Part shown: one piece after another, positions 2,673 through 20,028 of the stretch
Numbering within the stretch: the first letter of the stretch is position 1
How the letters are laid out: every line of letters begins with the position of its first letter
Source: Escherichia phage LH2
Reading direction: 5' to 3' (one strand)
Length of the DNA stretch: 64,000 nt
Sequence record: OQ378934.1
Translations under genes and position numbers: made by a program
Notes under the pieces: model-generated
Databases searched by the model: none
The model's input: the letters and a program-made list of their open reading frames with translations, nothing else
Told to the model about the DNA's origin: nothing

Positions 2673-5369
2673 ATGAAAGAATTTTATATCTCTATTGAAA
2701 CAGTCGGAAATAGCATTGTTGAACGTTATATTGATGAAAATGGAAAGGAACGTACTCGCGAAGTAGAATATCTTCCGACTATGTTTAGACACTGTAAGGA
2801 AGAATCAAAATACAAAGACATTTACGGTAAAAATTGCGCTCCTCAAAAATTTCCATCAATGAAAGATGCCCGAGATTGGATGAAACGAATGGAAGACATC
2901 GGTCTCGAAGCTCTTGGTATGAACGATTTTAAACTCGCTTATATCAGTGATACATATGGTTCAGAAATTGTTTATGATCGAAAATTTGTTCGTGTAGCTA
3001 ACTGCGACATTGAGGTTACTGGTGATAAATTTCCTGACCCAATGAAAGCAGAATATGAAATTGATGCTATCACTCATTATGATTCAATTGACGACCGTTT
3101 TTACGTCTTTGATTTGTTGAATTCAATGTACGGTTCAGTATCAAAATGGGATGCAAAGTTAGCTGCTAAGCTTGACTGTGAAGGTGGTGATGAAGTTCCT
3201 CAAGAAATTCTTGACCGAGTAATTTATATGCCATTCGATAATGAGCGTGATATGCTCATGGAATATATTAATCTCTGGGAACAGAAACGACCTGCTATTT
3301 TTACTGGTTGGAATATTGAGGGATTTGACGTTCCGTATATCATGAATCGTGTTAAAATGGTTCTCGGTGAACGTAGTATGAAACGTTTCTCTCCAATCGG
3401 TCGAGTAAAATCTAAACTAATTCAAAATATGTACGGTAGCAAAGAAATTTATTCTATTGATGGCGTATCTATTCTTGATTATTTAGATTTGTACAAGAAA
3501 TTCGCATTTACTAATTTGCCATCATTCTCTTTGGAATCAGTTGCTCAACATGAAACCAAAAAAGGTAAATTACCATATGATGGTCCTATTAATAAACTTC
3601 GTGAGACTAATCATCAACGATACATTAGTTATAACATCATTGACGTAGAATCAGTTCAAGCAATTGATAAAATTCGCGGGTTTATTGATCTAGTTTTAAG
3701 TATGTCTTATTACGCTAAAATGCCTTTTTCTGGTGTAATGAGTCCTATTAAAACTTGGGATGCTATTATTTTTAACTCATTGAAAGGTGAACATAAGGTT
3801 ATTCCTCAACAAGGTTCGCACGTTAAACAAAGTTTTCCAGGTGCATTTGTGTTTGAACCTAAACCGATTGCTCGTCGATACATTATGAGTTTTGACTTGA
3901 CGTCTCTGTATCCTAGCATTATTCGTCAGGTTAACATTAGTCCTGAAACTATTCGTGGACAGTTTAAAGTTCATCCAATTCATGAATATATCGCAGGAAC
4001 AGCTCCTAAGCCAAGTGATGAATATTCTTGTTCTCCGAATGGATGGATGTATGATAAGCATCAAGAAGGTATCATTCCAAAGGAAATCGCTAAAGTATTT
4101 TTCCAGCGTAAAGATTGGAAAAAGAAAATGTTCGCTGAAGAAATGAATGCCGAAGCTATTAAAAAGATTATTATGAAAGGTGCAGGGTCTTGTTCAACTA
4201 AACCAGAAGTTGAACGATATGTTAAGTTCAATGATGATTTCTTAAACGAATTATCGAATTACACTGAATCTGTTCTTAATAGTCTGATCGAAGAATGTGA
4301 AAAAGCAGCTACACTTGCTAACACAAATCAGCTGAACCGTAAAATTCTTATTAACAGTCTTTATGGTGCTCTTGGTAATATTCATTTCCGTTACTATGAT
4401 TTGCGAAATGCTACTGCTATCACAATTTTCGGTCAAGTTGGTATTCAGTGGATTGCTCGTAAAATTAATGAATATCTGAATAAAGTATGTGGAACTGATG
4501 GTGAAGATTTCATCGCGGCGGGTGATACTGATTCGGTATATGTTTGTGTAGATAAAGTTATTGAAAAAGTAGGTCTTGACCGCTTTAAAGAACAAAATGA
4601 TTTAGTTGAATTCATGAATCAGTTCGGTAAGAAAAAGATGGAACCTATGATTGATGTTGCATATCGTGAGTTATGTGATTATATGAATAACCGCGAGCAT
4701 CTGATGCATATGGACCGTGAAGCTATTTCTTGCCCTCCACTTGGTTCAAAGGGTGTTGGTGGATTTTGGAAAGCGAAAAAACGTTATGCTCTGAACGTTT
4801 ATGATATGGAAGATAAGCGATTTGCTGAACCACATCTAAAAATCATGGGTATGGAAACTCAGCAGAGTTCAACACCAAAAGCAGTACAAGAAGCTCTCGA
4901 AGAAAGTATTCGTCGTATTCTTCAGGAAGGCGAAGAGTCTGTCCAAGAATACTATAAGAACTTTGAGAAAGAATACCGTCAACTTGACTATAAAGTTATT
5001 GCTGAAGTAAAAACCGCGAACGATATAGCGAAATATGACGATAAAGGTTGGCCAGGGTTTAAATGCCCGTTCCATATTCGTGGTGTACTAACTTATCGTC
5101 GAGCTGTTAGTGGTTTAGGTGTAGCTCCAATTTTGGATGGAAATAAGGTAATGGTTCTTCCATTACGTGAGGGAAATCCATTTGGTGACAAGTGTATTGC
5201 TTGGCCGTCGGGTACGGAACTTCCAAAAGAAATTCGTTCTGATGTACTGTCTTGGATTGACTACTCAACTTTGTTCCAAAAATCGTTTGTTAAACCGCTT
5301 GCGGGCATGTGTGAATCGGCAGGTATGGACTATGAGGAAAAAGCTTCGTTAGACTTCCTGTTTGGCTGA
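2673..5369 (+). CDS. 43: DNA polymerase gp43 (family B)
   Basis: 898 aa; exonuclease and polymerase motifs (YGG, DTDS); recognised as T4 gp43. Confidence 0.97.
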   Translation: MKEFYISIETVGNSIVERYIDENGKERTREVEYLPTMFRHCKEESKYKDIYGKNCAPQKFPSMKDARDWMKRMEDIGLEALGMNDFKLAYISDTYGSEIVYDRKFVRVANCDIEVTGDKFPDPMKAEYEIDAITHYDSIDDRFYVFDLLNSMYGSVSKWDAKLAAKLDCEGGDEVPQEILDRVIYMPFDNERDMLMEYINLWEQKRPAIFTGWNIEGFDVPYIMNRVKMVLGERSMKRFSPIGRVKSKLIQNMYGSKEIYSIDGVSILDYLDLYKKFAFTNLPSFSLESVAQHETKKGKLPYDGPINKLRETNHQRYISYNIIDVESVQAIDKIRGFIDLVLSMSYYAKMPFSGVMSPIKTWDAIIFNSLKGEHKVIPQQGSHVKQSFPGAFVFEPKPIARRYIMSFDLTSLYPSIIRQVNISPETIRGQFKVHPIHEYIAGTAPKPSDEYSCSPNGWMYDKHQEGIIPKEIAKVFFQRKDWKKKMFAEEMNAEAIKKIIMKGAGSCSTKPEVERYVKFNDDFLNELSNYTESVLNSLIEECEKAATLANTNQLNRKILINSLYGALGNIHFRYYDLRNATAITIFGQVGIQWIARKINEYLNKVCGTDGEDFIAAGDTDSVYVCVDKVIEKVGLDRFKEQNDLVEFMNQFGKKKMEPMIDVAYRELCDYMNNREHLMHMDREAISCPPLGSKGVGGFWKAKKRYALNVYDMEDKRFAEPHLKIMGMETQQSSTPKAVQEALEESIRRILQEGEESVQEYYKNFEKEYRQLDYKVIAEVKTANDIAKYDDKGWPGFKCPFHIRGVLTYRRAVSGLGVAPILDGNKVMVLPLREGNPFGDKCIAWPSGTELPKEIRSDVLSWIDYSTLFQKSFVKPLAGMCESAGMDYEEKASLDFLFG

Positions 5370-5938: not shown

Positions 5939-6190
5939 ATGGAAACTTTAGTAGCAGGTTCAATTTTTATGGTTTTAGTTTCAGGCGTGTTGGCTATTAT
6001 TATATACATGCTTCCATGGTTTATCGCCTTGATGCGCGGGTCAAAATCGACAGTAGGAATCTTTTTCACATCTTTACTGTTTAACTGGTCAATTATTGGT
6101 TGGTTTATTACATTTATTTGGTCAATTGCGGGTGAAACTAAAAAATCCGCACAACCAAATCAAGTAATTATCATCAGAGAGAAGGAATGA
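5939..6190 (+). CDS. imm: superinfection immunity membrane protein Imm
   Basis: 83 aa, two hydrophobic segments, located between 43 and 42 as in T4. Confidence 0.85.
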   Translation: METLVAGSIFMVLVSGVLAIIIYMLPWFIALMRGSKSTVGIFFTSLLFNWSIIGWFITFIWSIAGETKKSAQPNQVIIIREKE

Positions 6191-6336
6191 AAAGCAAAAT
6201 TTTAGCAGTATTGCTTTTAATCTTGATGATTATAATAAGTATATACTATAGCGTAGCAGTTCCTTGTATGATTCCAACGCTTATTATAGGGTGGAGTTTA
6301 TTACTGTTACAAGTTAAATATGAATGTATCAATTGA
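6187..6336 (+). CDS. small hydrophobic peptide (49 aa)
   Basis: ATG overlaps imm stop (ATGA); translation MKSKILAVLLLILMIIISIYY...; below the ORF-track size cutoff. Confidence 0.4.
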   Translation: MKSKILAVLLLILMIIISIYYSVAVPCMIPTLIIGWSLLLLQVKYECIN

Positions 6337-6343
6337 GGTTTAA

Positions 6344-7084
6344 ATGATTAATGACTCTATGACAGTTGAAGAAATCCGTCTTCATTTGGGAATTGCATTA
6401 AAGGAAAAAGATTTCGTAGTTGATAAAACTGGTGTTAAAACTATTGAAATTATTGGTGCATCATTTGTAGCAGATGAACCTTTTATTTTTGGCGCTCTTA
6501 ATGACGAATACATTCAGCGTGAACTTGAATGGTATAAATCTAAAAGTTTGTTTGTTAAAGATATTCCGGGTGAAACACCGAAGATTTGGCAGCAGGTAGC
6601 ATCTTCTAAAGGCGAAATTAACTCGAATTATGGTTGGGCCATCTGGTCGGAAGATAACTATGCTCAGTATGACATGTGTTTAGCTGAACTTGGTCAAAAT
6701 CCTGATTCTCGACGTGGTATCATGATTTATACTCGTCCATCCATGCAGTTTGACTACAATAAAGATGGCATGTCAGATTTCATGTGTACGAATACAGTGC
6801 AGTACCTGATTCGTGATAAGAAAGTCAATGCAGTGGTTAACATGAGAAGCAATGATTGCTGGGCAGGCTATCGTAATGATTATGCATGGCAAAAATACGT
6901 ATTAGATAAATTAGTATCTGATTTGAATGCAGGCGATTCAACTCGTCAGTATAAAGCAGGTTCTATTATATGGAATGTTGGAAGTCTTCATGTATATTCT
7001 CGTCATTTTTACTTGGTTGATCATTGGTGGAATACTGGCGAAACTCATATTATGAAAAAAGATTATAACGGTGAGTGGAAATGA
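6344..7084 (+). CDS. 42: dCMP hydroxymethylase gp42
   Basis: 246 aa; thymidylate-synthase-like fold protein recognised as T4 gp42. Confidence 0.95.
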   Translation: MINDSMTVEEIRLHLGIALKEKDFVVDKTGVKTIEIIGASFVADEPFIFGALNDEYIQRELEWYKSKSLFVKDIPGETPKIWQQVASSKGEINSNYGWAIWSEDNYAQYDMCLAELGQNPDSRRGIMIYTRPSMQFDYNKDGMSDFMCTNTVQYLIRDKKVNAVVNMRSNDCWAGYRNDYAWQKYVLDKLVSDLNAGDSTRQYKAGSIIWNVGSLHVYSRHFYLVDHWWNTGETHIMKKDYNGEWK

Positions 7085-7923
7085 TTCAATTTGTAATTCC
7101 AAGTTATCAACGTGTAGGGGCAGTTTCTGCCCTTGATATGTTTCCGACTGATTATGAACCTCATATTGTAGTACGTGAACACGAAGAAAAAGCTTATTAT
7201 GATGCTTATGGGTCTAGAGCTAAAATTATAACTATTCCTGATGATGTTAATGGAATTGCTGGTACTCGTAAAGCAATTACTAATATGTATGCAGGTCAAC
7301 GAATCTGGATGATTGATGATGATACTACTATTCGTATGAGTTCAATGCGAAAGAAAGATGATCGTCGCTGCGTAGATAAAATTAATCAATTAACTCGTGA
7401 ACAGTTCTATGAATTGATTCAATACGTTGAAGATGCCATGGATTGTGGGTATTATCACGGTCATGCTCGTCTACCTATTTTTAAAATTACTTCATCTTGG
7501 GGTAATTATCGTGAAAATTCATATGGATTCACGAATACCTGGTATGACCTCGGAAAACTTACAACAGAACAAATTGGGTATGGAAAAATTGATTTATGCG
7601 AAGATATGTATGCATTTCTCAATTTAATTAATCAAGGTTATCCGCATTTGGCCTTGTTCAAATATCTGGTTGTATCTGGAAAAGCACAAGCTCCAGGCGG
7701 ATGTAGTTCAATTCGTAGTAATTCAAAACATAATAGAGCTCTTGAGCAAATCAATAGAGAGTTTCCGGAGCAAGCTCGTTGGAAAACTTCTAATATTGAA
7801 AAACGAAAATCATTAGGTGAAGAAGACGAGCCATTAAAGGTTCTTCGCATGTGTGTTTCACGCAAAGAAAAATCAGAAGCGTTTCATAAGTTTAATGCTA
7901 TTCATCCAATAGCGGTTGATTAA
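7081..7923 (+). CDS. putative DNA glycosyltransferase (DxD motif), non-T4 beta-gt
   Basis: ATG overlaps gene 42 stop (ATGA); 280 aa; hydrophobic run then DDD (IWMIDDDTT) typical of GT-A DxD; sits where T4 has beta-gt but is not T4 beta-gt by sequence. Confidence 0.5.
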   Translation: MIQFVIPSYQRVGAVSALDMFPTDYEPHIVVREHEEKAYYDAYGSRAKIITIPDDVNGIAGTRKAITNMYAGQRIWMIDDDTTIRMSSMRKKDDRRCVDKINQLTREQFYELIQYVEDAMDCGYYHGHARLPIFKITSSWGNYRENSYGFTNTWYDLGKLTTEQIGYGKIDLCEDMYAFLNLINQGYPHLALFKYLVVSGKAQAPGGCSSIRSNSKHNRALEQINREFPEQARWKTSNIEKRKSLGEEDEPLKVLRMCVSRKEKSEAFHKFNAIHPIAVD

Positions 7924-7927
7924 TGAC

Positions 7928-8593
7928 ATGAAAAGACATAAAGAAAAGAAATATAATTATACTTATGTTATAACTAATTTAGTTAATAATAAAATTTACT
8001 ATGGAACTCATTCAACCGATGATTTAAATGATGGTTATATGGGATCAGGAACTTTATTAGCACAAGCCAAGAAAAAGTATGGTAAGAAAAATTTTAATTT
8101 AAGCATTCTTGGGTTTTATAAAGATTTTAAATCAGCCCGTGATGCTGAAAGAGAATTAGTAACAATAGATGTGGTAAATGATCCTATGACTTATAATTTA
8201 AAAATTGGTGGAGAGGGTGGTAGAAGAATTGGTTATAGAGTTTCATCAGAAACCAAAGAAAAAATTTCAAAAGCTCAAAAAGGAAAACCAAAACATCTTG
8301 GATTTAGTGATGTTTGCCGGAAAGCCCAGCTAGGCAAAAAGCAGTCAGAAGAAACTAAAGCAAAACGAAAAGAAGCTTTGCTTAATAATCCATATGGTTA
8401 TAATAGAAATAAACCATCACATAAACGTGACCCAATAATGTGGGATAACATTGAAAAGATTAAAGAAATATGGGAAAACTCTGGAAAACCCGGTGCTATT
8501 AAGCTTAAAAAATTAGCAATTGAAGCTGGATTTCCAAATAAATCTTATGCAAGAATGCTCGAAGTATTTCGTGGAACAAGAACACTACTATAA
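7928..8593 (+). CDS. GIY-YIG homing endonuclease (seg-like)
   Basis: N-terminal YVITNLVNNKIYYG GIY-YIG motif; NUMOD3-like repeats (SSETKEKISKAQKGK, SEETKAKRKEA) in C-terminal half. Confidence 0.75.
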   Translation: MKRHKEKKYNYTYVITNLVNNKIYYGTHSTDDLNDGYMGSGTLLAQAKKKYGKKNFNLSILGFYKDFKSARDAERELVTIDVVNDPMTYNLKIGGEGGRRIGYRVSSETKEKISKAQKGKPKHLGFSDVCRKAQLGKKQSEETKAKRKEALLNNPYGYNRNKPSHKRDPIMWDNIEKIKEIWENSGKPGAIKLKKLAIEAGFPNKSYARMLEVFRGTRTLL

Positions 8594-8601
8594 GGTATTA
8601 T

Positions 8602-9777
8602 ATGTCTGATTTAAAATCTCGTTTGATTAAAGCTTCTACTTCTAAATTGACTGCAGAATTAACAGCATCTAAATTCTTTAATGAAAAAGATGTAGTTCGA
8701 ACAAAAATTCCTATGATGAATATTGCACTTTCTGGTGAAATTACTGGTGGTATGCAATCTGGTCTGTTAATTTTGGCAGGTCCATCAAAATCATTTAAAT
8801 CAAACTTTGGATTAACAATGGTGTCATCTTACATGCGTCAATATCCTGATGCAGTATGTTTGTTTTATGATAGTGAATTTGGTATTACTCCTGCTTATTT
8901 GCGGTCTATGGGAGTCGATCCAGAACGAGTAATTCATACTCCGGTTCAATCACTTGAGCAATTACGTATTGACATGGTTAATCAATTGGATGCAATTGAA
9001 CGCGGCGAAAAGGTAGTCGTTTTTATCGATTCACTTGGTAACTTAGCTTCTAAGAAAGAAACTGAAGATGCTTTAAATGAAAAAGTTGTTAGTGATATGA
9101 CTAGAGCTAAAACAATGAAAAGCTTATTTCGTATCGTAACTCCCTATTTTAGTACTAAAAATATTCCATGTATTGCTATTAACCATACATACGAAACACA
9201 AGAAATGTTTAGTAAAACAGTTATGGGAGGTGGTACTGGACCGATGTATTCGGCTGATACTGTATTCATTATCGGTAAGCGCCAGATTAAAGATGGTTCT
9301 GATCTTCAGGGGTATCAATTTGTTCTAAATGTAGAAAAATCTCGTACCGTCAAAGAAAAAAGTAAATTCTTTATTGATGTTAAATTTGACGGTGGTATCG
9401 ATCCTTATTCTGGATTGTTAGATATGGCTCTTGAATTAGGATTTGTAGTAAAACCTAAAAATGGCTGGTATGCTCGTGAATTTCTTGATGAAGAAACCGG
9501 CGAGATGATTCGCGAAGAAAAATCTTGGCGTGCAAAAGATACCAACTGTACTACATTCTGGGGTCCTTTATTTAAGCATCAACCATTCCGAGATGCTATT
9601 AAACGCGCTTATCAGTTAGGTGCTATTGATAGTAATGAAATTGTTGAAGCTGAAGTTGATGAATTGATTAACTCAAAGGTTGAAAAATTTAAATCTCCAG
9701 AAAGTAAAAGTAAATCAGCAGCTGATTTAGAAACTGACCTAGATCAGTTAAGTGATATGGAAGAATTTAATGAATAA
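8602..9777 (+). CDS. uvsX: recombinase UvsX (RecA-like)
   Basis: 391 aa; Walker A GPSKSFKS; recognised as T4 UvsX. Confidence 0.96.
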   Translation: MSDLKSRLIKASTSKLTAELTASKFFNEKDVVRTKIPMMNIALSGEITGGMQSGLLILAGPSKSFKSNFGLTMVSSYMRQYPDAVCLFYDSEFGITPAYLRSMGVDPERVIHTPVQSLEQLRIDMVNQLDAIERGEKVVVFIDSLGNLASKKETEDALNEKVVSDMTRAKTMKSLFRIVTPYFSTKNIPCIAINHTYETQEMFSKTVMGGGTGPMYSADTVFIIGKRQIKDGSDLQGYQFVLNVEKSRTVKEKSKFFIDVKFDGGIDPYSGLLDMALELGFVVKPKNGWYAREFLDEETGEMIREEKSWRAKDTNCTTFWGPLFKHQPFRDAIKRAYQLGAIDSNEIVEAEVDELINSKVEKFKSPESKSKSAADLETDLDQLSDMEEFNE

Positions 9778-10114
9778 AGATGATTTAGATTTAGATCTAG
9801 AAATTATCGATGAATCCCCCTCTTCGGAGGGGGAAGAAGAAAGAAAAGAACGTCTTTTTAATGAATCTCTTAAGATAATTAAATCTGCTATGGAAAATGT
9901 TATCCAGGAGATTGTCATTAAACTAGAAGACGGTTCTACACACATTGTGTATGTGACAAAATTAGATTGGGTTGATGGAAAAGTCGTAATGGACTTTGCT
10001 GTTCTTGACCAAGAAAGAAAAGCTGAGTTAGCTCCTCATGTAGAAAAATGTATTACAATGCAACTACAAGATGCATTTAATAAAAGGTCAAAGAAAAAAT
10101 TTAAATTCTTTTAA
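9770..10114 (+). CDS. 40: gp40 head vertex assembly chaperone
   Basis: ATG 9770 overlaps uvsX 3' end; ~114 aa; position between uvsX and 41. Confidence 0.75.
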   Translation: MNKDDLDLDLEIIDESPSSEGEEERKERLFNESLKIIKSAMENVIQEIVIKLEDGSTHIVYVTKLDWVDGKVVMDFAVLDQERKAELAPHVEKCITMQLQDAFNKRSKKKFKFF

Positions 10115-12415: not shown

Positions 12416-12772
12416 ATGTATAGTTCTGAATTTCCATATTTAAAAATGGAAAAAATTTCATACGATTTTATAGATGAAAAGGTTTATTACAGTTTTCATG
12501 AGCCGCGTTTTAACAGTGAAGTCGGTTTTATTGTAGTAAAAGACAATTTCATTTTAAAGATATATTCGGCATTAAAGGATTTTCACTACGAAAATATTAA
12601 CCTAAAATTTGATAAAGAAAACGTTCGTAATTGCGCAGTAACAATTACAGGAAATAAAGGTACATGCGTTATGCTATCTGATGAAATTAATGATTTGCTA
12701 AATGATGCCGAAAAGGTTGTTATTCCATCGATTGATGACCAAATTTTTAATGCTTTTATGAATAGAGGTTAA
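12416..12772 (+). CDS. hypothetical protein (T4 61.2 position)
   Basis: 118 aa ORF. Confidence 0.55.
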   Translation: MYSSEFPYLKMEKISYDFIDEKVYYSFHEPRFNSEVGFIVVKDNFILKIYSALKDFHYENINLKFDKENVRNCAVTITGNKGTCVMLSDEINDLLNDAEKVVIPSIDDQIFNAFMNRG

Positions 12773-14236: not shown

Positions 14237-14887
14237 GTGAATTACCAAAAAATTTACTCGGCTTTAATTACAAAAGCTAAATGCCGGCATCTTGGCGGAT
14301 ATAAAGAACGCCATCATATAATTCCTAGATGTATAGGAGGAGCAGATGACAAAAACAATCTTGTTGAGTTAACTGCGCGTGAGCATTTTATAGCTCATAG
14401 ATTATTAACTAAAATATATCCAGATGTGAGAGGATTGCATTATGCTGTAAATTTAATGCGATATAATAAAGGTGTTAAATTAACAAGTAGATTAATAGAA
14501 ACTCTTAAAATCCAAAACTCTGTTCTTTTCTCGGGTGAAAATAATCCTAGATATGGCAAGCCGTCATGGATTAAAGGCAAAAAGACCCCAGAAGAAACTA
14601 AAGCCAAAATGCGTCTAGCTCATAAAGGTAAAATTATATCCGATGAAGCCAAGGCTAATATGAGTAAAGCCCGAAAAGGAAGATTTAGCGGTAAAAATTC
14701 GCCTCGATACGGTTTACCAAATCCTAGGCGAGGAGAAATATGGAATAGTTATGATGCGCTTTATGAATTATGGGTTTATAATAATAGACCTAAGCGCACA
14801 AAATTTAATAAAATAGCTGTCAAGGCAGGTTATCCTAATATCTGCTATAGACATATGATAGAAAACTTCATAAGAAAGGAAAAATAA
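14237..14887 (+). CDS. HNH homing endonuclease (mob-like)
   Basis: GTG start with aaagga RBS; HNH core ERHHIIPRCIGGADDKNNLVELTAREH; NUMOD-like repeats; paralogue of the 27738 HNH ORF. Confidence 0.75.
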   Translation: MNYQKIYSALITKAKCRHLGGYKERHHIIPRCIGGADDKNNLVELTAREHFIAHRLLTKIYPDVRGLHYAVNLMRYNKGVKLTSRLIETLKIQNSVLFSGENNPRYGKPSWIKGKKTPEETKAKMRLAHKGKIISDEAKANMSKARKGRFSGKNSPRYGLPNPRRGEIWNSYDALYELWVYNNRPKRTKFNKIAVKAGYPNICYRHMIENFIRKEK

Positions 14888-19278: not shown

Positions 19279-20028
19279 ATGAAACTGTCTAAAAATCAAA
19301 TTCGTAAAATTACACGTCGCTTAGAGCATACTCAGGCATCTGCCAAAAGACGTTCTAAGGATTTTAACTTAGACTTTAATTACATTAAGAACATTTTAGA
19401 TCAGAAAGTTTGCGCTTACTCGGGAGAACCTTTTGATAATCGTATTGAAGGAGAGAAATTATCATTAGAACGTTTTAATAACGATATAGGCTACATTAAA
19501 GGTAATGTTATCCCAGTTAAGAAAAAATATAACACAGCTCGTTCTGATTTAACATTAGAAGAACTTATTGAAAAACGTGATGCCATTGCAAGACGTATCG
19601 CTAATCCTTCTGCCCGTAAAGTAGAGAAACTTAATCTCGACGAGAAGAAATGGGCCCAAATTAAAAAGGTTTATGGCACTATTTTAAAAATCCGAGCAAA
19701 ACGTGAAAATCGTGTTAAGCATATGGCGAACATGATGAAAAATCAGCCTTTATCTAACGAATCTAAACTTAAAATTGCTGCTTTGAAAGCACGCATTAAT
19801 GGCTCACATCAAGCAGAAGGCCATGAACTTACTAAACTCAACGTTCTTCTTAAAGGCTCTGACTGGAAAACTAAAACTAAATTAACTGACGCTGAATCGC
19901 TTTTCGATACATATGATAAAGTTATCCAAGGTCTGCAACGTTTTGAAAAGATTGGTTTCATTGGTAAATTAAAATTGAAACGTGGCTTACCACTTAGCGC
20001 ATCATTATTCCAACTGATTAAAGGTTAA
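19279..20028 (+). CDS. srd: Srd-like protein
   Basis: 249 aa; position between modA and dda as in T4. Confidence 0.55.
   Translation: MKLSKNQIRKITRRLEHTQASAKRRSKDFNLDFNYIKNILDQKVCAYSGEPFDNRIEGEKLSLERFNNDIGYIKGNVIPVKKKYNTARSDLTLEELIEKRDAIARRIANPSARKVEKLNLDEKKWAQIKKVYGTILKIRAKRENRVKHMANMMKNQPLSNESKLKIAALKARINGSHQAEGHELTKLNVLLKGSDWKTKTKLTDAESLFDTYDKVIQGLQRFEKIGFIGKLKLKRGLPLSASLFQLIKG

Follow-up and report, generated by a model that had tools for sequence, protein, structure and literature searches.

As judged from sequence, Escherichia phage LH2 (OQ378934.1) carries between gene 42 and uvsX the known beta-glucosyl-HMC-alpha-glucosyltransferase gene (ba-gt, ORF1), ortholog of the gene for the T2/T6 enzyme, followed by the segA gene of phage T4 (ORF2) at T4's own position upstream of uvsX. 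We explain the locus as a whole by LH2 being a T-even phage with a T2/T6-type sugar locus and T4-type SegA homing, a reading to which we assign a probability of about 0.93. Both genes and their functions are already in the literature, and so are the transferase fold and the synteny of its gene with T4 beta-gt; the finding is real but known.

The window, by which we mean the entire 64,000-nucleotide stretch analyzed, is a T-even (Tequatrovirus) segment in which the plus strand reads, in the same order as T4, 43, imm.1, imm, 42, ORF1, ORF2, uvsX, 40 and 41 (Table 1). No record was identical to the window overall, and the best 25-kb match reached ~95%. The coordinates, lengths and motifs that an earlier sequence-only reading had given for the two ORFs were confirmed on the sequence, as was the overlap of ORF1 with gene 42, where the ba-gt ATG (7081-7083) and the gene 42 TGA (7082-7084) overlap as ATGA. 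This arrangement implies that the two genes would be translationally coupled. ba-gt is separated from segA by a 4-nt spacer, and segA from the uvsX start by an 8-nt spacer that is identical in LH2 and T4. On the minus strand, 7081-8593 holds only short ORFs (54-78 aa), all of them inside the two genes. A sigma-70 promoter scan of 6200-9000 returned 12 sites where 14.5 are expected by chance, no exact late promoter (TATAAATA) was present in 6001-9200, and Rfam gave no match in 6000-10000. The MotA-box-like sequence inside segA probably represents the middle promoter of uvsX, embedded in the endonuclease gene.

Table 1 Features of the gene 42 to uvsX locus of LH2, in window positions
Feature	Position	Strand	Basis
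Gene 42 (dCMP hydroxymethylase)	6344..7084	+	ORF list; syntenic with annotated gene 42 in T4, T2, T6 and 235Ecol030PP
ba-gt (ORF1), beta-glucosyl-HMC-alpha-glucosyltransferase, TAGT family, predicted GT-A fold, 280 aa	7081..7923	+	
ATGA start/stop overlap, gene 42 / ba-gt	7081..7084	+	Sequence; T2 annotation with the same 4-nt overlap
DDD codons, D79-D80-D81 (DxD-type motif), GATGATGAT	7315..7323	+	Conservation across the family
Junction, last 23 nt of ba-gt plus 2 nt	7901..7925	+	BLAST end-points, direct comparison
Near-T4-identical tract, segA plus first ~650 bp of uvsX; putative homing / co-conversion unit	7915..9260	+	Mismatch list, 100-nt identity table
segA (ORF2), free-standing GIY-YIG homing endonuclease, 221 aa	7928..8593	+	Identity to T4 SegA
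MotA-box-like sequence TGCTTAATAATCCATATGGTTATAAT inside segA	8379..8404	+	
uvsX recombinase	8602..9777	+	segA-linked T4-type allele at 8608 to ~9243

The assignment of ORF1 is carried by direct comparison with the T2 and T6 enzymes. The protein is identical to T2 BBC14657 at 275 of 280 residues (98.2%) and to T6 AXN58083 at 255 of 261, and it matches the Pfam family PF20691 (TAGT) over model positions 2-205 of 205 with 38.3 bits (cut-off 27.5) and PHROG 842 with E=2.7e-88. It had no match in NCBIfam and none in PADLOC. The sequence-only reading had stated that T2 and T6 lack beta-gt between 42 and uvsX and carry a beta-glucosyl-HMC-alpha-glucosyltransferase gene there, which is correct, and its suggestion that ORF1 might be that enzyme was borne out. 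A gene encoding ORF1 at ≥95% identity occurs in 471 phage records (tblastn), nearly always adjoining gene 42. The family is much larger than close matches indicate: a word-indexed homologue search with ORF1 returned only 11 proteins, and an exhaustive profile search retrieved 2163 cluster representatives at E ≤0.001.

Across 101 diverse TAGT representatives, down to ~18% identity, five residues (R11, D80, D175, G186 and G207) never vary, and D79 and D81 are conserved in at least 90%. In nine closer homologues of ORF1 the entire DDD motif is invariant. It is directly preceded by the hydrophobic residues IWMI, so that the hydrophobic-DDD motif reported earlier is indeed present. For neither the ORF1 nor the ORF2 protein did a sequence search of the PDB return a relative of solved structure, and the fold of ORF1 was thus taken from a predicted model of moderate confidence in which two loops have pLDDT <50. 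This model has a GT-A (nucleotide-diphospho-sugar transferase) fold, and ORF1 thus combines a predicted GT-A fold with a conserved DxD-type motif. The TAGT of T6 has likewise been placed in the GT-A fold, as a sister group of GT2 (PMC13216743, 2026). The DDD motif probably holds the metal and the UDP-sugar, and the invariant D175, part of an ED pair, is a candidate for the catalytic base. Relative to the T2 enzyme, the LH2 protein carries five substitutions (LH2 residues R11, N68, K92, I101 and P251), and all family-invariant residues are present in it. N68 was found in LH2 alone among nine proteins compared; the family as a whole is variable at this position.

The other T-even glucosyltransferase genes were searched for in the same DNA. 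Neither T4 beta-gt nor T4 alpha-gt had a match in the 64-kb window; tblastn with T4 beta-gt gave nothing below E=2.5, and ORF1 does not match PF09198. We considered whether ORF1 could be a beta-gt orthologue and ruled this out, as the two are unrelated in sequence and fold. By T4 gene order, alpha-gt would lie just beyond the start of the window, at a distance of about 4-5 kb, and the closely related 235Ecol030PP, which shares the 42 / ba-gt / segA / uvsX locus, does have it.

The hmC precursor is the product of the gene 42 enzyme. In the pathway that we propose, gene 42 would supply hydroxymethyl-dCMP, and an alpha-glucosyltransferase, which gene order and relatives lead us to assume is encoded outside the window, would place alpha-glucose on hmC in the DNA. 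ORF1 would then add a second glucose from UDP-glucose in beta-1,6 linkage, giving gentiobiosyl-hmC. Given a set of alpha-gt and TAGT genes, LH2 is predicted to have gentiobiosyl-hmC DNA and to behave like T6. Alpha-GT with TAGT is the common combination, and the alpha-GT with beta-GT of T4 is rare (PMC13216743). Deletion of ba-gt in T6 leaves alpha-glucosyl-hmC only and increases sensitivity to the Brig1 glycosylase (PMC11078745). Phage Solly, whose enzyme is 98.9% identical to ORF1, has DNA with about one third hmC and about two thirds alpha-gentiobiosyl-hmC and no beta-glucosyl-hmC; the same study states that TAGT is syntenic with T4 beta-gt (PMC13390438). The pattern of sugars on hmC matters because it determines which defences of the host, among them Brig1 and the GmrSD/BrxU and McrBC types, a T-even phage evades. 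The gentiobiosyl-hmC prediction itself is a routine inference, and many related genomes already have ba-gt and segA annotated.

The second ORF encodes a protein identical to T4 SegA at 220 of 221 residues, the one change being P188 in LH2 for S in T4, and its DNA is 99.6-99.7% identical to T4 records annotated as segA. The earlier identification of a GIY-YIG protein holds, with the catalytic domain at the N-terminus (PF01541, residues 10-90, 37.4 bits, cut-off 22.6). NUMOD3, representing the DNA-binding C-terminal region, matches two further stretches (28.7 bits, cut-off 20.4, best at residues 102-123), TIGR01453 is matched just above its threshold (56.4 bits, cut-off 56.05), and the PADLOC HEase model gives 515 bits. 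A new member of the Seg family was considered and rejected, as ORF2 is SegA itself. The sequence-only reading had described the two ORFs together as a non-T4 module. This description stands for the transferase gene alone, which differs from that of T4. It fails for ORF2: the T4 order is 42, beta-gt, segA, uvsX, and because T4 has segA at the same position, ORF2 is not a non-T4 element, a point that had been overlooked. SegA is a characterized free-standing GIY-YIG homing endonuclease with an insertion site between uvsX and beta-gt and uvsX as target gene; its cut leaves a 2-nt 3' overhang (PMC2988022, a review citing Sharma and Hinton 1994). Site-specific cleavage of segA-less uvsX and preferential inheritance in mixed infection are reported for the T4 protein (PMC2988022).

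The distribution of segA is sporadic. Full-length segA was found in 25 records, while a query with the 5' part of uvsX matches 1191. Most phages with ba-gt match LH2 6300-9800 at 81% coverage, with the segA stretch alone absent. The same 42 / ba-gt / segA / uvsX arrangement occurs in seven phages in GenBank (ESh36, 235Ecol030PP, 215Ecol030PP, Manna, CJY920, PD112 and CE1), all of which match LH2 6300-9800 over its full length at 96.6-97.3% identity. In Salmonella phage Manna (2276-2917) and in 215Ecol030PP, gene 42 and ba-gt are separated by an extra ORF of 213 aa with no more than a weak NUMOD3 match (E=0.0027), perhaps a further gene for a free-standing endonuclease that inserted on the other side of the transferase gene.

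Identity to T4 changes sharply around segA. Across 7915-9260, LH2 and T4 differ by a single mismatch, at 8489, and the flanks of this tract are ~95-97% identical to T4. Over 8608 to ~9243, the first ~640 bp of uvsX, the T2 and T6 genes are only 73-78% identical to LH2, and beyond ~9243 their identity returns to ~98%. Of the first 220 uvsX codons, 71 show synonymous differences and 35 show amino acid changes. The allele is bimodal across the database: 28 records have the LH2 version at ≥95% identity and 1163 are at ≤80%. All 25 records with full-length segA carry the T4-type uvsX allele, and the other three of the 28 are one partial T4 clone and two records of phage SG1. Salmonella phage SG1 (NC_054936, 3125-3260) lacks segA and combines the T4-type uvsX 5' allele (99.6%) with a spacer of T2 type; the crossover falls between the positions equivalent to LH2 8619 and 8637. 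It is the only phage found that has the segA-linked allele without the endonuclease gene.

We read the segA/uvsX tract as a homing and co-conversion footprint that points into uvsX. In this mechanism SegA would cut the uvsX of segA-less phages during mixed infections, and repair from the segA-bearing genome would copy segA together with the adjoining diverged 5' part of uvsX. The T4-type 5' allele, in LH2 as elsewhere, is presumably resistant to SegA cutting. The tract would then be what a homing endonuclease gene is expected to leave when it moves together with a diverged, presumably resistant target allele. The modest added value of LH2 is that it offers a very clean natural footprint of SegA: the 1.3-kb tract contains one mismatch to T4, linkage to the diverged uvsX allele is complete, and a single phage has that allele while lacking segA.

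Could SegA also carry the transferase gene with it? The sequence-only reading had named the adjacent endonuclease as a possible mobilizer of the module, such that a cut beside the locus drives co-conversion of the glycosyltransferase gene and the two move as one. Homing endonucleases do co-convert flanking markers (PMC2988022, PMC2330249), and segA directly abuts ba-gt. Against this, the T4-identical tract takes in no more of ba-gt than its last ~25 nt and runs from there downstream into uvsX. In the body of ba-gt, identity to T2 per 100 nt is 93-98%, which is ordinary backbone divergence. The two genes also differ in their occurrence (471 records for ba-gt at ≥95% identity, 25 for segA), and in T4 the same segA haplotype is joined to an unrelated beta-gt. 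Because the footprint stops at the last 25 nt of ba-gt, the evidence says no, and we consider mobilization of the transferase gene by SegA very unlikely. It is a shade less likely still that the LH2 copy of segA is an inactive passenger and that the identical tract came from ordinary recent recombination with a T4-like phage rather than from homing. Tequatroviruses are highly mosaic, the window has several other patches of altered identity, and SG1 has the T4-type uvsX allele without segA. However, the segA ORF is intact and one residue away from a biochemically active T4 protein, the tract has segA and the gene known to be its target at its centre, and the linkage between segA and the uvsX allele is complete.

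The least probable of the alternatives concerns the sugar chemistry, namely that ORF1 differs in specificity from the T2/T6 enzyme and, for instance, takes over the role of T4 beta-gt by acting on hmC itself or transfers another sugar. TAGT homologues also occur with beta-GT or without any other GT, and specificity varies across the wider family (PMC13216743). Nevertheless, none of the five substitutions that separate ORF1 from the T2 enzyme departs from a family-invariant residue in the LH2 protein, and gentiobiosyl-hmC without beta-glucosyl-hmC was measured in phages with 98.9%-identical enzymes. A T2/T6-type transferase beside an independently homing T4-type SegA remains our preferred reading of the locus.

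The junction between the two genes bears on the history of the T4 locus. By BLAST end-points, homology of the T2 type extends in LH2 as far as 7925 and that of the T4 type begins at 7901, and 7901..7925 is the only stretch common to the T2-type and T4-type loci. Directly upstream of segA, T4 has TTCATCGAATAGCAGTTGATTAATG, which is identical at 24 of 25 positions to the 3' end of the T2 TAGT gene, stop codon included. This suggests that beta-gt replaced a TAGT gene in T4. Given such a 25-nt remnant, segA would first have inserted beside the TAGT gene, and the rare beta-gt of T4 would have displaced that gene later, in an ancestor already bearing segA. In PD112 and CE1, the segA/uvsX tract is present in a form with 96-98% identity, as opposed to 99.9%, and the segA haplotype thus has some age among phages that have a TAGT gene. 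Alternatively, the 25 nt mark the upstream crossover point at which segA entered a T2-type genome. That the order 42 / TAGT gene / segA / uvsX is the ancestral state of the T4 locus is a tentative proposal, which we would place just short of an even chance. Taken as a remnant, the 25 nt are a clue to how T4 gained its unusual pair of alpha-gt and beta-gt.

Several other patches of the window differ from T4, T2 or both. Between the primase gene 61 and the dCTPase gene 56, in a stretch without T4 or T2 homology, a 216-aa ORF (14237-14887, plus strand) matches NUMOD3 with 29.3 bits and has a sub-threshold HNH match; it probably encodes an HNH homing endonuclease of the free-standing kind. Unlike T4 and T2, LH2 showed no dam gene between genes 61 and 56. 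A 118-aa ORF (12416-12772, plus strand) matches the Pfam family AdfA (anti-DarT factor A) with 34.1 bits (cut-off 27) and lies in a stretch absent from T4. The region 19400-20000 is a locally diverged patch, ~68-73% identical to both T4 and T2 and ~95% identical on either side.

Among known systems, the T2/T6 beta-glucosyl-HMC-alpha-glucosyltransferase is the closest to ORF1, with the same length of 280 aa, the same slot between gene 42 and uvsX and, in T2, the same ATGA overlap with gene 42. The loci differ downstream of ba-gt, where T2/T6 have a 77-nt spacer and LH2 has segA. The T2 enzyme also differs from that of LH2 at the otherwise invariant R11 (LH2 7111-7113): T2 (LC348380) alone has His, and LH2, T6, Solly, EL, SG1, PD112, Manna and 235Ecol030PP have Arg. 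The gentiobiosyl-hmC content of T2 DNA is ~5%, versus 72% in T6, and the His at this position might explain the low value in T2. In T6 (MH550421), codon 10 of ba-gt is TAG (amber), where LH2 (7108-7110) and seven other phages compared have CAA. The T6 gene is thus annotated from Met20 (261 aa), without the invariant I6-P7-S8-Y9-R11 strand. An amber codon is unexpected in the phage whose gentiobiosyl content is highest; a sequencing error or a mutation particular to the stock may account for it.

T4 SegA resembles LH2 SegA in its distance to uvsX, its orientation and the linked uvsX 5' allele. The upstream neighbour differs: in T4 it is beta-gt followed by a 164-nt spacer, whereas in LH2 it is the TAGT gene, 4 nt away. 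Besides the 25 nt shared with the TAGT gene, this T4 spacer (T4 locus 3864-4027) contains ATCTTTAACCGGTG, a sequence that recurs as ATCTTTAACCAGTG in the spacer preceding uvsX in T2/T6, and an unannotated hydrophobic ORF of 24 codons (MLGPLLLIIGLGLFAFWDFFCYID). T4 beta-glucosyltransferase (PF09198) shares with ORF1 the syntenic slot downstream of gene 42 and action on hmC-containing DNA. In contrast, it is unrelated in sequence (16% identity in a forced global alignment), has a GT-B fold where ORF1 has a predicted GT-A fold, and glucosylates bare hmC rather than alpha-glucosyl-hmC.
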